NCBI GenBank assembly: GCA_965248445.1
Contig: CBDFJG010000004.1
Span: 1,184,001 to 1,248,000 of the forward strand
Length of the DNA stretch: 64,000 bases
Direction: 5' to 3'
Origin: Planctomycetota bacterium
GTDB taxonomy: Bacteria > Planctomycetota > JAJSAM01 > JAJVHW01
The position numbers were made by a program. This document shows, piece by piece, positions 24,001-30,000 of this stretch; position 1 is the stretch's first letter, and every line of letters begins with the position of its first letter.

Positions 24001-27000
24001 CATGTCGTCGGCAAGGAGATCTGCGACCATGCGGAACGACGTCAGTGGCGTGCGCAACTCGTGCGTGACCGCCGACGCGAACCGGTCCCGGCGCTCGGCG
24101 TGCAAGAGGCTTGCGCGCACGCTGAACATGGATGCACCCAGTGCACTCAGCATGGCGAGCCACGCCAGCAGCACCGCCGCGCGGGACCAACTCATCGCCG
24201 GCGCAGACGGGATCGCGACCGGCGGAACAACCAGCTCGACCGGCACGGAGGCGAGCACCCGCCCGGTCGTGTCCGCCGCCACGCGGCTCTCCTCGACGGC
24301 TCGCAGCGAGACCCCGGGTAGCTCATCCCCGACCGTCTTGAGAAGCGCGCGCTGCAGTTCGTTCCAGTCGACGAGGAAGCCCTGCACCGCGGCGCGGCCA
24401 CCACGCCTGGCGCGGCGCACGATGGCGAGGCGCTCGCCGGGATCGCCGCCCAGCCAAACCGCGACGAACGGGCCGACCTCTGAGGCTGCGCTCGCGCTCT
24501 CGAGGTCCGGCCCGGCGTTCGCCACCTGGTACCGCATCCCCACGAGCTGCTGCCCGCGTTGCTGTTGCAGGTTGCGGTTCAGCGCGGATTGCCCATCCGC
24601 CACCAGCTGCGCGGGCTCCACGGAGATCGCATCTTCAAGCTCACCGAGCCGCGCGCAGAGATCCTCGTATCTCAGATGCTCGGCAAGTCCGCTCATGACG
24701 CGCGTGTTCTCGTCGATGAATTCCGGCGGCACCCTCTGCGACTCCGCCAAGTGGCGGAAGACGCCGACCTCCGGGGCCTGCGGCGACGTAGTCGTGTCGT
24801 CCGCGAAGACCTGGAAGTGCAGCCGCACGAGTGGCGATCGGAAGTTGGCCAGCGGCGAACGCTGCGTGACGCTCTGTGGGGTGTTCGGTCCCTCGTCCGC
24901 GGCGGACTCCACGAGATCTTCGAAAAACGTGGAGTAGTGCCGTGCCGGGCGAGCGGCCTCCGCCGCGATCCGCGCGGCGACCCAAGCGTCCATTCGCCAG
25001 AGCGCCAGGTGCACGTCGTCACTGCGCTGCTTCTCGACCTGTGCACGGATCGCCTCGCCCTCGAGGCGTGTGACCGCGTACGTGATCCAAGCGAGTGCGG
25101 CGACAACGCACAGCGCAGCCGTGGCGAAAACGACCCAGACCCGCCGGTGCGAGCGCATCACGCGGACTCCGTCGCCAGCATGTAGCCCTTACCACGCACC
25201 GTCACGACGACCTTCGGCTCGGACGGATCGTCGTCGAGCTTCTCACGCAGACGCGCGACGTGCACGTCGACGGTGCGTGTGCGGACCCCGCGGGGATCGA
25301 TGCCCCACACGGAGCGCAGGAGTTCGTCGCGAGACACGATGCGCCCCGGCGACGTCGCCAGGTAGCGCAGCAGCGATGCCTCGCGGTCCGACAGAGCGCG
25401 CCGCTCCCCGCCGGCGAGCGTCACCTCACGGCGCTCGAGATCGATCTCGCGGCCCGACACGCTCAAGCTGGAGACGTCCGTCGGCCGCGCGGGCGATCGG
25501 CGCATCACCGCCTCGACCCGCGCGAGCAACTCGCGGGCGCCAAAGGGCTTCACGACGTAGTCGTCCGCGCCGCCCTTCAATCCGGAGATGCAGTCTTCCT
25601 CGGCGCCCCGCGCGGTCACCATGATCACGGGCAGCGTCGGCTGCGACTTGCGCAGTTCGGCGAGTACCGCGAATCCGTCCATGCCGGGGAGCATGACGTC
25701 GAGCAGGACCAGATCGATTCCGCCGGAACGCGCGGCGGTCAGTCCCGCCGGGCCGTCCTCGCACTCCACGACGTCGTAGCCGGCGAACGACAGGGCATCC
25801 GCCGTCGCGCGACGGATCGCGCGATCGTCCTCGACCAACAGCACTCTCTGTTTCGCCATCACGTAGGAGTGTACGAGCGGTATCGGCCACCCGCTGCGTT
25901 CCGGCGGTAACGCTCACGTAACGGACCCGCGCGCTGTGAGCCTGCGAGGCACGCCGTTACGTCGGCGTTACCCCGCGACGGCGGCACCAGACGTAGTTTT
26001 CAGTGGTCGGACAAGCACACGAAGGAGATGCACGATGAGACTGCTGAAGACACGCCGGATCGCCACACTGATCACCCTGACTCTGGTTGCCGGACTCGCC
26101 ACGGGTGTCCGTGCCGAGGAGGAGCCGGATCGGGCGAAGAAGATCCTCGAGCTCGGCGCCGAGTCCGTTCTCGAGAAGGCTCGCGACGACGCGGGTGCCG
26201 CTCCGGCGGACAACCCCAAGGTGCTGCCCGGACGCGTGAAGTGGCACAGGGACCAGGCCACCGCCGGTCGGGCGGCGCAGGTCTCGGGCAAGCCCGTGCT
26301 GGTGTTCCAGCTGCTCGGGCAGCTCGACGAGGAGTTCTGTTGAACGAACGCGCGCCTCGCGAGGGCCGTGTCGTTCTCGCACCCTGAGTTCGCGAAGTTC
26401 GTCCAGGACCGCTTCGAGCCGACCTGGGAGAGCGTCCGCGACGTTCCCCGCATCTCGATCGACTTCGGCGGCGTCGGCGGCGCGCGCAGACTCGAGCGCA
26501 CGTTGCACGGCAACATCGCAACGTTCGTCGTCCTGCCGGACGGCCTGGTCGCCGACGTCATCCCCGGCCTCTACGACCGTGAGACGTTCCGCGCCCGACT
26601 CACCGCGTCCGCCGACATGGCCGAGCGCATCGCGCGCCTGTCCCCGGAGCTGCGGGTCGATGCCGTGCGCAACCACCACAAGGCGGAACTGGCGCGGCTC
26701 ACCGCACCGGCCGCGACGATCACGGCGGATGTCAGGAAGCGTGTCGTCGAGCGTCCCGTCGAGCGCGCCGTTTCGACGGACACCCCGGAGGTGCCGCTCA
26801 CACCCGAAGCACTGGCCGCGCGGGCCGCAAGGCTCCGCATTCTGATGCGTTCGGTGAGCAAGTCGGGCATCGAGGATCTGATCCAGCCGATCGAGCCGTT
26901 GGACATGACGCGGACGGACTCGAAGTTCCGCATCGAGAAGCCGGTCGAGGCCGCCCTGCCTCGCTTGAACCCGCTGCACCCGGCGCCGGATCTCACGCGC

Positions 27001-30000
27001 GACACGGAGAACAACGAGAAGAACCGCCGGCCGGCCGTTCACCGGCTCCTCGCCGGGTACTCGCCGTTCACGGTCTCCGGTCTCTCCGGGCAGGTCTACG
27101 CGGAGATCCTCGGGACCGACCTGACCGACCCGTACCTGGGTCTGGGCGCGGCTCTGTTCGACACGTATCCGTTCGAGCGTTGAAGCACAGCGTTCAAGAT
27201 CCGACAACGAGATCCACACAGGGCCCGGCCGTCGGCCGGGCCCTCTCTCGTTGGCGTACACTCGCGCGCACCTGTGGAGGTCGGTGCCCCGGATGAGTGA
27301 AGAGAGTGAGTGACGAGAGACGGGACCCGCCGCGCGATCTGTCGGCCACGCGATCCCGTTGGACCGTGCGCGCTCTCGTGGCGCTGTTCGTGGGATACCA
27401 CCTGACGCTCTGCGTTCTCAAGTGGCGCGCGTACGGCTACGGAGACTTCGACCTCGCGATCTTCGATCAGGCGGTCTGGAACACGGCGCACCTGAACACA
27501 CCGTTCTCGACGTCGATCCGGTTCGGATCCGTCTTCGCCGATCACGTCCCGCTCATCCTGCTGGGCGCCGTCCCGATCTACTGGCTGCTCGGATGGCTGT
27601 TCCCGGGCGGCCTGATCCTGGTCGCCGTGCAGGCGATCGCCCTCGGCGTCGCAGCGTTCCCATTGCGCAGGCTCGGCAAACAGGCGGCCGGCAACCTGGC
27701 CGGCGTCGCCGTTGCGACCGCGTACCTGCTGCATCCGGCGACGGGCTACCTCGCCCTGTTCGAGTTCCACCCGGGCGCTCTCGCAGTGCCGTTCCTCTGC
27801 TGGAGCGTCTGGGAGTTGCACGCCGAGCGATTCCGCCGCTTCGTGCTGTTCCTCGTCCTCGCGCTCGCGTGCCGCGAGGACGTCGCGCTTCCCGTCGCAA
27901 TGCTCGGCGTGTACGCGCTCTACCGCGCCTGGCGGCTGAACACGCCTCTGCGGTCGTGGCCCGTGCTGCGCTGGGCGGTCGTGCCCGCATCGCTCGCCAT
28001 CGTGTGGTTCGCCGTGGCCGTCGGAGTCGTGATCCCGGCGGCGCAGCCGGAGGGCCAGCAGTCGGACACGACGCCGTTCGTGCAACTCTACGGCCATCTC
28101 GTGGATGGCGCAGACGGTCCAGTCTCGATGGGCGACGTGGCCGGCGCCGTGATCACCAGCCCGATCGCGAGCTTCGAACGATCGTCATCACTGCCGCACA
28201 AGCACGTTCGCGCCTACACGAAGCACCTGATCGCGCCGACGGCAGGGCTGGCGCTGCTGTCCCCTATCGCGTTGCTGCCCGCCCTGCCGACGTACGCGCT
28301 GAACGTGCTCTCCGGGAAGTCCGAGACGTCGTCGGTCTGCTACCAGTACACCGCGAACCTGCTGCCGTTCCTGTTCCTGGCGACGGCGCTGTCGCTCGGA
28401 TGGCTCGCCAAGCTCGGGCCGTTCCGTCGCGTGCCGCGCTTGGCACCGTGCGCGCTGATCCTCGTCGCGACGCTGTCGAACCTCACGTGGGGCAAGGCGT
28501 TCCGACCACTCACAGATCCGCTCGGTGTCGGGGAGGCCAATCCACCTCACCAGCTCTATCGCACGCAGTACCAGCGCAATCACACTCACGACGCGAAGGA
28601 CGCGCTCGTGGCGATGGTGCCCGACGACGCGTCTGTCGTCGCAACGTTCGACTTCCTGCACCGGCTCCCGATGCGCCAGGCGCTGCACTCCTGGCACTAC
28701 GTCCGCGTCGGTTTCGATCCGATCACCGGCGCGCCGCTCGAGACGCCCGACGTCGAGTACGCGCTGCTTGACCTGGCTGACCCGCTGACGGTCGGCTCGT
28801 TCGGCGACGGCGAGTCCGGCCGCCGCCAACGCGCGTACCTCCGCGACCTGTTTGTCGTCGCGCAGGCGGGCACTGCGGTCCTCCTGCGCCGAGGCCGCCG
28901 GGAGGGTGAGCTGTACGGGCATGACGTGACACCGCTCATCGCCACGACCCCGCGCACTCCGTCCACCGACGTGCTGGACTGGCAGCGCACCGGCCTGGCC
29001 ATCGGTCAGCTGAACGTCTCGAGTCTGTTCGAGAGGACCGACGGGAGGGGGCGCGTCGACGTCCGCGTCGAGTGGGCGGCGAGTCAGGCGATGCTCGACG
29101 GCGCAAGCGCCGCCACGGACGGATTCGCCCGCACGGCTCAACTCTGGCTGCACTTCCGGATCACACGCGACGACGACGTGGTGCACCGGTCCACCTGGCC
29201 GCTCGATCTCGGATTGCACCCGTTGTCGGAGTGGACGGGTTTCGAGCCGGTCGAGGGTCTGACGCACGACAGGTTCGTCGCCGCGCGCTACGCGTTGCTC
29301 CTCCCCCCCCGCCTCCCCCCCGGCCCGTTGCGGGGCCTGATGGAGATCTCACAGAGCGACGTGCCGACGGCCCCCGCCTTCGCGGGCGTGGATCTCGGCG
29401 AGTTCGAGGGTCGCTGAGGCTCGCAGGCGGCGTCATACGAACTCAGACACTGCGAATTCGCTGGACTGTCAGCGCGTTCGCGCCGAAGAGTGAACCGTAT
29501 GCCGTGCGTGCAGCGTGCCGTCGCCCTCGTTCTCCTATGCGCTTACGCGGCGCTGAGTTCGTTCGGTGCGGGGTGGGTTCTCTGCTCGGAGGCCGACGGA
29601 CGCGTGGCGCTCGAGGGCGCTGCCGCGGGCTGCTGCGACACGGCGCATGCAGAAGAAGCGCCCGGCTCTCCTGCTGATCAGGAGCACGACTGCGGCGACT
29701 GCTCGGACGTGGCACTCGACGAACTCACACGCTCTCGCCACGCGGACGACGAGCACGACGCGCCCGACCTGGCGCCCGCTCTCCGCGTTGTCCCGGCGAT
29801 CGCCACGATCGCGCACGCCGCGTCCTGCTCGCCGGAGCGAACACGCGCGCCGCCGCGTCCGCCGCCACAGCGCGCGCACCTCCTGACCGTTCGCCTCCTC
29901 CTCTGACCGGCCGGCTCGCTCGAGTCGTTTCCGTTTCCGAGGAGGTTTCCCATGTTCGCCCACGACGGGCGGTGCTGGGCGTGGCTCGGGGCGGCGGTCC

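Follow-up and report, generated by a model that had tools for sequence, protein, structure and literature searches.

The locus at 26035..27183 (+) of the window, by which we mean the whole 64,000-nt stretch analysed here (positions 1,184,001-1,248,000 of contig CBDFJG010000004.1 from a Planctomycetota bacterium), was previously annotated as two ORFs, which raises the question of whether the TGA that parts them ends a gene or encodes selenocysteine (Sec) inside a single one, and what such a protein would do. The ATG at 26035, the TGT of Cys102 (26338-26340), the TGA of codon 103 (26341-26343) and the stop TGA (27181-27183) share one frame, and the second annotated ORF (26368-27183), which starts with GTG, is in frame with the first. 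Read through its one internal TGA (Sec103), the gene spans 382 codons plus the stop and gives a protein of 382 aa with the motif LDEEFCUTNAR, in agreement with the genome-wide survey's note, which had joined the gene calls g04002 and g04003 into one protein read through the TGA in this motif. One Cys and one Sec make up the entire Cys/Sec content of this product, hereafter the window protein. From our reading of the sequence, residues 1-27 (26035..26115, +) are a predicted signal peptide, with a basic N-end, a hydrophobic core and V-R-A followed by E; the N-terminal hydrophobic stretch is comparable in 30/30 relatives and lipobox-like in some.

To see what occupies the Sec column elsewhere, we drew on a sample of 401 genomes of the phylum and analysed the 30 best places, the window's own among them. 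Both gene halves are kept in one frame across all 30 loci. The column holds TGA in 19 (16 Cys-Sec and 3 Thr-Sec) and belongs to a Ser-Cys pair (SCANSR) in the remaining 11. Five further family loci carry two TGA and three Cys codons there (two Ser-Cys, one Thr-Cys), 11 new loci carry eight TGA and three Cys-Cys, and in more distant relatives with Sec the pair reads Thr-Sec or Leu-Sec. The survey's finding of TGA or Cys at a single column thus stands, its 13 and 6 genomes being a subset of our 19 Sec and 11 Ser-Cys loci, while its figure of one Thr before Sec was too low. Downstream of the TGA lies a SECIS-like hairpin (26359..26380, +), whose eight-pair stem (26359-26366 with 26373-26380) we verified at the place given in the survey: it starts 15 nt past the TGA, or 18 nt when counted from the U of that codon. 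Its loop (26367-26372, CGUGUC) contains the GUG (26368-26370) that was taken, falsely, for the start codon of the second ORF. All 19 Sec forms have six to eight uninterrupted pairs and a CGUG loop, and the 11 Ser-Cys forms, with 0-2 pairs at that place, lack the hairpin. Among the Sec forms 86.8% of cells are paired, with two-sided changes at six of the eight pairs, a result matched by 0/500 shuffles, whereas the Cys forms show 56.8% paired and zero double changes. Within the hairpin, three third-codon positions (30, 36 and 39 in the alignment) do not vary and, over all distinct Sec forms of the family (n = 29), 27 have at least six pairs and 28 the CGUG loop. The Cys-Cys forms retain five to six stem pairs, so the coding sequence itself accounts for some of the stem. 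In the window, the region folds with an ordinary energy (z = -1.05; 29/200 shuffles fold equally well), and no SECIS family of Rfam matched.

The genome holds a complete set of Sec machinery, with tRNA-Sec (68.3 bits, anticodon TCA), SelB (335.7 bits), SelA (502.3 bits) and SelD (386.1 bits, its gene carrying a TGA of its own) each above the curated cut-off, and selA was found in 17 of the 18 other genomes with a Sec form. By this comparison of sequences, 26035..27183 is a real selenoprotein gene, since Sec and Cys replace each other at one column, the downstream hairpin covaries and the genome has the Sec machinery, and the hairpin would serve SelB and tRNA-Sec in the insertion of Sec at codon 103. 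Were the TGA to terminate translation instead, leaving two separate genes or a decayed one, it would be easy to understand why gene callers split the locus and why, of 55 public sequences related to the read-through protein, 52 are fragments whose first residue lies downstream of the Sec column. Nevertheless, the comparative data already contradict that explanation, which we judge extremely improbable: in dozens of genomes the two halves are conserved in a shared frame, TGA occurs at a single column and is replaced there by Cys in the others, the hairpin covaries, the Sec machinery is complete, and the upstream piece alone would make an incomplete thioredoxin fold that ends ahead of the first helix. 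In public protein sets the Sec members appear truncated, beginning only with the GUG of the SECIS loop.

What fold carries the Sec residue was addressed with an AlphaFold model, in which Sec is represented as Cys. Its pLDDT is 76.3 overall and mostly above 90 over a domain of residues about 62-205 (26218..26649, +). VIA-align placed this domain closest to 3f9u_B (Z 12.1, rmsd 2.1, 106 residues), followed by 7tkv (Z 10.9), 1sen (9.9), AGR3 (9.8) and DsbH (9.2), and Foldseek against the PDB gave a best E of 1.7e-4; the closest structures are 3f9u, DsbH-type proteins, AGR2/3 and DsbD-gamma. The model therefore bears out the thioredoxin fold that had been claimed, and supports the view that residues about 62-205 adopt its DsbD-gamma/DsbH-type form; the mature protein has a Thioredoxin_7-like fold. 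W70, P87, G95, N105, R110 and W131, listed earlier as invariant, were all verified as such, and additional invariant residues were detected; H215 is nearly invariant, and an acidic D-E-E stretch precedes the dyad. Beyond the domain, the linker motif [S/T/G]-K-x-x-[V/I]-E-x-P-[L/M/V] occurs twice (residues 233-247, 26731..26775, and residues 295-309, 26917..26961, both +), followed by a conserved C-terminal helical module (residues about 318-375, 26986..27159, +; pLDDT >90) with D323, N327 and a conserved D-P-Y-L-G-L motif (27127-27144, +). The module occurs in this family's architecture only, and a structure search with it yielded no fold match.

As the survey had noted, no Pfam or NCBIfam model describes the protein. 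The window protein matches neither the Thioredoxin_7 model (PF13899) nor any other Pfam family at E<=10; weak PF13899 matches were obtained for 19 of the 30 members (best E 1.3e-5). The fold variant is shared with PF13899 and the DsbD-gamma, DsbH, AGR2/AGR3 and ERp19 structures (Z 8-12 over residues 62-205), but unlike that group the family lacks CxxC, has an extra loop ahead of the active site, and has many more invariant polar residues together with the added C-terminal module. AGR2 has a CxxS site, and the Cys branch of the family, with C-x-x-S, is AGR2-like. The sole NCBIfam match is to NF041383 (E 0.026), one of the models for VPGUxxT (NF041383/NF041382; OS_HP5 in PMC13188914), a family of thioredoxin-like (seleno)proteins in the same phylum that likewise has an exported Thioredoxin_7-like domain. 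Membership in VPGUxxT was rejected, as the score of 14.2 bits falls far below the cut-off (275) and the site reads E-F-C-U-T-N-A instead of V-P-G-U-x-x-C; weak NF041383 matches appear in 12 of the 30 members (best E 4.4e-8). Nevertheless, hhalign aligned the family with the N-domain of VPGUxxT over 95 columns (probability 96.4%, E 1.1e-9), placing U103 on the Sec of VPGU-xx-C, C102 on the Gly and A106 on the second Cys, and this profile comparison indicates that the N-terminal thioredoxin-like domains are homologous. The two differ in that VPGUxxT has U-x-x-C while the family here has C-U-x-N-[A/G/S]-R, with a loop five residues longer. Moreover, type 2 VPGUxxT has a second domain with F-A-M-[T/H]-[U/C]-[F/Y]-W, which we take to be MsrA-like, in place of the helical C-terminal module found here.

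The sequence and the AlphaFold model locate the Cys102-Sec103 dyad (TGT TGA, 26338..26343, +) directly ahead of helix 104-114. Sec103 sits at the N-end of helix alpha-1, the usual site of the attacking Cys in CxxC. The active site reads U-T-N-A, which is neither CxxC nor UxxC, and the usual second position (+3) is Ala, Gly or Ser in the family, with a Cys at -1 instead. The data thus support a Sec at the canonical attacking position, a missing +3 Cys and a Cys at -1. Taken together, we consider it moderately probable that this is an exported selenoprotein of an unmodelled family, with a selenol nucleophile and a vicinal Cys102-Sec103 ring. The selenol of Sec103 would act as nucleophile in redox chemistry within a periplasm-like compartment and, once it is oxidised or in a mixed bond with substrate, Cys102, the sole other Cys, may close an eight-membered Cys-Sec selenenylsulfide ring in place of the missing +3 Cys, to be reopened by an outside reductant. 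We infer this vicinal selenenylsulfide by analogy, and favour it because of the Cys-Cys forms kept in three genomes where Cys replaced Sec, which support a working dyad, and because Cys102 is the only Cys of the window protein. The proposed ring closure follows that of mammalian thioredoxin reductase at its GCUG end, whose Gly-Cys-Sec-Gly redox centre lies on the flexible C-terminal tail of a flavoenzyme. Both have an adjacent Cys and Sec able to close an eight-membered selenenylsulfide ring, but the proteins are non-homologous, and here the dyad belongs to a thioredoxin fold, at the start of its helix alpha-1, rather than to a flexible tail.

The residue before Sec bears directly on this mechanism. 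Thr-Sec in 3 of the 19 Sec forms, and Thr-Sec or Leu-Sec in distant relatives, mean that a Cys at this position is not obligatory, and Sec103 might act alone, forming a mixed selenenylsulfide with substrate or becoming oxidised and then being regenerated by an external thiol, in the manner of CxxS proteins (AGR2) or 1-Cys peroxidases; Cys102 would then do no more than tune or protect the selenol. The Ser-Cys-x-x-Ser clade that forms the bulk of the family, and the presence of AGR2, AGR3 and ERp19-type proteins among the best fold matches (Z 9-10), fit such an enzyme. We regard it as rather unlikely, given that the -1 Cys is kept in 35 of the 38 Sec rows of the tree set, the outgroup branch included, and that three genomes retained Cys-Cys after the replacement of Sec. 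The Arg/Asn/Asp-rich conserved surface, the repeated linker motif and the C-terminal module would probably hold a substrate or partner. A broader proposal, possible if somewhat unlikely, is an enzyme class on the thioredoxin fold whose redox centre is no longer CxxC but an eight-membered ring of vicinal Cys-Sec (or Cys-Cys), convergent with the animal thioredoxin reductase tail, with an arginine-rich pocket and a helical module recognised via the K-x-x-[V/I]-E-x-P linker motif, and which would reduce an exported substrate (e.g., an oxyanion, a sulfoxide or a halogenated compound). We know of no periplasmic thioredoxin-like protein that handles substrates of this sort.

Sco proteins use the thioredoxin fold for copper, and we also considered that the dyad might serve a periplasmic carrier or detoxifier as the binding site for soft metals or metalloids (Cu(I), Hg, As, Cd). 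A 2026 review lists the CU motif for SaoL, HgcA, SaoC, MbdU, CopZ form 2 and KCU-star, and CUxxT for SaoB (PMC13188914); most of the CU-motif proteins, among them the MerB-like SaoL and the metal-binding MbdU, are metal-related by name, and the acidic D-E-E stretch and H215 could suit a metal site. Such a role is quite improbable considering that 20 loci show no recurrent adjoining metal-resistance or transport genes, that Ser-Cys forms have a single thiol, and that the best fold matches are oxidoreductases, with Sco2 merely at Foldseek rank 47 (probability 0.12). The vicinal Cys-Sec is common to these selenoproteins and the family here, but none is listed as a thioredoxin-fold family, and their NCBIfam models gave no match to the window protein at E<=10. 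KCU-star (NF033934, 57 positions; a small protein ending in K-C-U) was rejected on the same protein threshold and because the dyad here is internal; a search of the whole genome with NF033934 found nothing at E<=0.01, consistent with the lack of a hit reported before. The family is likewise absent from the review's list of 119 prokaryotic selenoprotein families (PMC13188914) which, with the missing Pfam and NCBIfam models, upholds its description as new. The CU motif as such is already known from other bacterial selenoproteins, and only its placement on a thioredoxin fold is new. Thioredoxin-fold proteins are the commonest kind of selenoprotein, but the current catalogue has none in which a Cys-Sec dyad occupies the canonical active site.

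Finally, we looked at how far the family extends. Where the survey counted 13 and 6 planctomycete genomes, we found a much larger, unnamed bacterial family of 3,695 clusters at 50% identity, Cys forms in the majority, that also occurs outside the phylum. Both this occurrence and its presence in 35 of the 401 sampled genomes, against 285 with selA, make it a poor marker for Sec use in Planctomycetota. The Ser-Cys forms with CxxS are the largest branch (143 of the 150 best representatives), so a large share of the family functions on a single thiol that lacks a vicinal partner. As they form a single clade, the pairing of Ser with Cys and of Cys with Sec, read earlier as a correlation, reflects one evolutionary event rather than a repeated one. 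No conserved neighbour genes were found at 20 loci, and hence no partner or substrate is indicated. A family model would mend many annotations in Planctomycetota and neighbouring phyla, and the Cys-Sec, Thr-Sec, Cys-Cys and Ser-Cys forms within one family are a natural series that can separate the catalytic contribution of the vicinal partner from that of selenium. VPGUxxT and this family coexist in genomes G004, G008, G098, G122 and G176.

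The gene at 26035-27183 on the + strand runs from an ATG at 26035 to a TGA stop codon at 27181-27183, and its sole in-frame interruption is the TGA at 26341-26343. When this codon is read as selenocysteine, we obtain a protein of 382 residues in which positions 97-107 read L-D-E-E-F-C-U-T-N-A-R and which contains exactly one Cys and one Sec, Cys102 and Sec103. Judging from its sequence, the protein begins with a probable signal peptide, in which MRLLKTRR is followed by a hydrophobic stretch and V-R-A before E. The gene had been annotated as two ORFs, the second of which starts at a GTG at 26368, in frame with the first and 25 nt past the TGA. 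The genome carries a tRNA-Sec (68.3 bits, cut-off 47), called by ARAGORN as tRNA-SeC with anticodon TCA, as well as selB (335.7 bits), selA (502.3 bits) and selD (386.1 bits).

We searched 401 sampled genomes of the phylum in six frames and obtained a match in 72; the 30 best places, including the window's own, were reconstructed and aligned. One TGA was present at the Sec column in 19 of these loci, preceded by Cys in 16 (Cys-Sec forms) and by Thr in three (Thr-Sec), while the remaining 11 have S-C-A-N-S-R there (Ser-Cys). Both flanks of the column are kept in one frame in the 30 loci, and W70, P87, G95, U/C103, N105, R110, W131, P138, G148, T156, G159, N160, G170, G178 and P366 are invariant. 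Of 20 more places that we fetched, one yielded no match. Five proved to be family members (two Cys-Sec, two Ser-Cys and one Thr-Cys), and another ten make up a sister branch that reads E-E-F-C-U-A-N in every case; the last four are remoter Sec relatives, in which the site is G-C-U twice, T-U once and L-U once. Taking the 30 best loci and the five added members together, the family proper occurs in 35 of the 401 sampled genomes, as 21 Sec and 14 Cys forms. A scan of GTDB, with one genome per species, returned 19 loci, of which eight duplicate earlier ones and 11 are new; among the latter are a Sec form from a Fimbriimonadales MAG (L121) and Cys-Cys forms (C-C-T-N-A-R) in one Limnoglobus MAG and two Obscuribacterales MAGs (L116 and L117). 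Of the 18 other Sec-form genomes 17 carry selA, and the one lacking it is 84% complete; the gene was found in 8 of 11 Cys-form genomes, vs 285 of 401 with selA over the cut-off in the whole sample. This distribution agrees with the Sec reading, if weakly, because Sec use is widespread in the phylum.

The TGA is followed on the + strand by a hairpin in which 26359-26366 pair with 26373-26380 around the loop CGUGUC (26367-26372). All 19 Sec forms in the alignment of 30 have 6-8 unbroken pairs in the window's register and a CGUG-N-N loop; counting outward from the loop, the 11 Ser-Cys forms show 0-2 pairs, and only three of them carry CGUG. In the alignment of the Sec forms pairing holds in 86.8% of cells, and six of the eight pairs show two-sided changes; for example, G-A-G-A-A-C / G-U-U-C-U-C in one branch is replaced by U-G-C-G-U-A-C / G-U-A-Y-G-C-R in another. 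None of 500 shuffles matched the observed hairpin values, pairing dropped to 24-62% when the partner was slid by 1-3 columns, and the Cys forms reach 56.8% without any double change. Moreover, the third-codon positions within the hairpin (alignment columns 30, 36 and 39) are invariant in Sec forms, which indicates that synonymous sites are constrained. The two added Sec forms have seven pairs each; among the eight new ones from the GTDB scan there are 6-8 pairs in six, four in one and none in the window's register in one, and RNAfold places a shifted stem in these last two. The sister branch retains the hairpin with the loop CGUGAC. Three observations count against the hairpin. Folded as a single sequence, the region 26335-26440 is of ordinary stability compared with shuffles (z -1.05), so the case for the hairpin rests on the comparison between genomes. 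A scan of 20000-34000 against Rfam at E<=10 returned no SECIS family, only chance microRNA-like rows. The three Cys-Cys forms still retain 5-6 stem pairs, and part of the stem must therefore ride on the coding sequence; the loop G-U is lost in them, the loop reading CAUG or GAUG. What tracks Sec is the loop, together with the compensatory changes. Both the spacing of the hairpin and its loop G-U agree with the bacterial SECIS consensus. We consider it well supported that this is a genuine selenoprotein gene. The selD of the same genome (L018, C3:1080793-1081719, - strand) itself encodes a selenoprotein, with one in-frame TGA in G-G-G-U-A-C-K; the hairpin after that TGA has another shape, without a common loop motif, and therefore offers no cross-check of the window's hairpin.

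To model the protein we replaced Sec by Cys and ran AlphaFold2 on the alignment of 30 sequences, and obtained a pLDDT of 76.3 and a pTM of 0.63, with residues 61-220 mostly >90. In the model a strand (88-95) leads through a loop to U103 and a helix (104-114). The top Foldseek matches in the PDB were 3f9u (E 1.7e-4), a DsbH-domain protein, DsbH, AGR2 and DsbD-gamma. VIA-align likewise ranked 3f9u_B best (Z 12.1, rmsd 2.1 over 106 residues), followed by 7tkv (10.9), ERp19 (9.9), AGR3 (9.8), DsbH (9.2) and DsbD-gamma (~8.5), all over model residues 62-205. At the sequence level the window protein matches no Pfam family at E<=10, and the family profile, searched against PDB sequences, met chance matches only (E > 0.6); among the 30 relatives, 19 matched Thioredoxin_7 weakly and 12 matched NF041383, the VPGUxxT family, type 2, also weakly. 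True members of NF041383, which read V-P-G-U-x-x-C and continue into a second domain, occur over the cut-off in 18 of 201 genomes. A profile-profile comparison relates the two families with a probability of 96.4% (E 1.1e-9) and aligns U103 with U, C102 with Gly and A106 with the second Cys, the window family differing by a 5-residue insertion ahead of the active site. This alignment puts Sec where the attacking Cys classically lies; there is no Cys in the classical resolving position, and one is present at -1. The comparison thus shows that Sec occupies the canonical nucleophile position and that its partner Cys is shifted from +3 to -1.

A quick maximum-likelihood tree was inferred for 54 rows, with the sister branch as root. 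Duplicates were left out, as were four distant relatives, one row of an almost identical Obscuribacterales pair and, inadvertently, one sister-branch locus of the ten. The ancestral state in the rooted tree is Cys-Sec. The 14 rows with Ser-Cys or Thr-Cys all fall into a single clade (SH-aLRT 82), and the Thr-Sec and Cys-Cys rows group with one Cys-Sec row in another (97); the fewest changes are two for Sec/Cys and three for the -1 residue. The genome-wide survey's note had described Cys (Thr in one case) before Sec and Ser before Cys. The pattern is seen, although three forms are Thr-Sec and, as the Ser-Cys and Thr-Cys rows make up one clade, the pairing reflects a single event and not a repeated correlation. 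Cys-Sec in 35 of the 38 Sec rows of the tree, the retention of Cys-Cys where Sec was lost and the lack of any other Cys in the window protein support a working dyad, and a putative vicinal selenenylsulfide is the likeliest reading of the Cys-Sec forms. The Thr-Sec forms and the very successful Ser-Cys-x-x-Ser branch, on the other hand, count against a working dyad. That Sec103 acts as a single selenol is an unlikely reading, if one to be kept in mind, and we regard binding of a metal by Cys102 and Sec103 as quite improbable. The natural series Cys-Sec, Thr-Sec, Cys-Cys and Ser-Cys makes the family attractive for experiment. Close relatives of the window-type branch outside Planctomycetota are the two Cys-Cys forms L116 and L117 and the Sec form L121, a distribution that may point to horizontal transfer or to an error in binning.

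Searched with a profile, 1.84 billion representatives gave 3,695 clusters at E<=0.001, 2,304 at 1e-10 and 1,363 at 1e-30. Among the best 150 of the 3,695 clusters, 143 read S-C-A-N-S-R and one T-C-A-N-S-R, and 138 have D-[P/K]-W-[L/I/M]-G-L close to the C-end. The sole name we met for family proteins was 'hypothetical protein' (Chthoniobacteraceae, Verrucomicrobiae MAGs), and in the ESM Atlas a relative of the Cys form matched only clusters of that name, most often from Acidobacteriota and Planctomycetota. Public proteins matching the read-through protein are, in 52 of 55 cases, pieces whose start lies beyond the Sec column; in 47 the start is exactly at the V/M-x-F/L-S following the loop GUG. 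A 2026 review of prokaryotic selenoproteins tabulates 119 families, including VPGUxxT, Trx7/PDZ and several CU-motif families (PMC13188914); we found no counterpart of the window family in that table, and 'Planctomyc' is absent from the review's main text. Selenoproteins have been reported in two planctomycetes in a paper whose supplementary list may bear on priority (PMC4807772). Further literature searches returned nothing relevant to the window family. The survey's proposal of an undescribed selenoprotein family holds against the review's table and Pfam, and we consider it well supported that this is a large new family, so far unmodelled, built on a fold already known.

The C-terminal 200 residues of the window protein are helical and contain a conserved module (residues 318-375) with D323, N327 and D-P-Y-L-G-L at 365-370. 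Folded alone from 148 sequences, it reached a pLDDT of 77.3; its best VIA-align Z of 5.9 is lower than noise gives with helical models, and Foldseek gave no match at E<=0.001. We could thus assign no fold to the module, which is not evidence of a new one. The last 132 residues of a Cys form, used as a query, matched 1,974 proteins; those listed, 120 in number and all within the searched length range, carry no Pfam domain and are named 'hypothetical protein' only, and among them the module is seen only in the window family's architecture. The linkers either side of the thioredoxin domain carry a motif, [S/T/G]-K-x-x-[V/I]-E-x-P-[L/M/V], with two strict copies in the window protein (26731-26775 and 26917-26961) and seven in one relative (L028:559-2079, - strand); 150 family representatives hold 178 copies vs 6.35 in shuffles. 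In another relative of 591 aa (L033:1402-3174, + strand) the whole module is doubled in tandem, and the active-site column holds no Cys or Sec in the second of the thioredoxin-like copies.

The divergent neighbours of the gene are an OmpR-type response regulator (25158-25862) and a histidine kinase (23413-25161), both on the - strand and separated from it by 172 bp, and a DUF2079 membrane protein lies at 27297-29417 (+). The two-component pair is common to only one of 20 relatives' loci (L066, in genome G064). We compared these 20 loci of ~13 kb by Pfam on the 78 nearest of 126 ORFs within 4.5 kb and by all-against-all BLAST over all chosen ORFs, and no neighbours recurred other than fragments of the gene itself and its antisense shadows. 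Past the stop codon, at a distance of 38 nt, lies a perfect inverted repeat of 10 bp, all G+C, around a 3-nt loop (27221-27243); TCTCTC follows it in place of a T run. A terminator scan of 25800-27400 does not call it, the T run being too weak. The listed sequencing runs were checked for RNA data sets and contained none.

With selA over its cut-off in 285 of the 401 phylum genomes and one TGA in many of the weak thioredoxin-like matches, the phylum seems to hold an unusual wealth of thioredoxin-fold selenoproteins, of which most probably lack annotation. One distant relative (L100, G334:C92:8600-12300) has the site G-C-U-A-A-G-D and, upstream of it, a second in-frame TGA that likewise follows a Cys (G-S-C-U-E-G-G), which may be a second Sec or reflect a wrong start. 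Elsewhere in the window's own genome, on contig C1 near 172.9 kb, lies a further candidate for an exported selenoprotein of the Thioredoxin_7-like kind (L052:1597-1599, - strand), with a lipobox-like N-end, a canonical N-U-G-A-C (UxxC) site and, ~19 nt past its TGA, a G+C hairpin with GUG at the tip.
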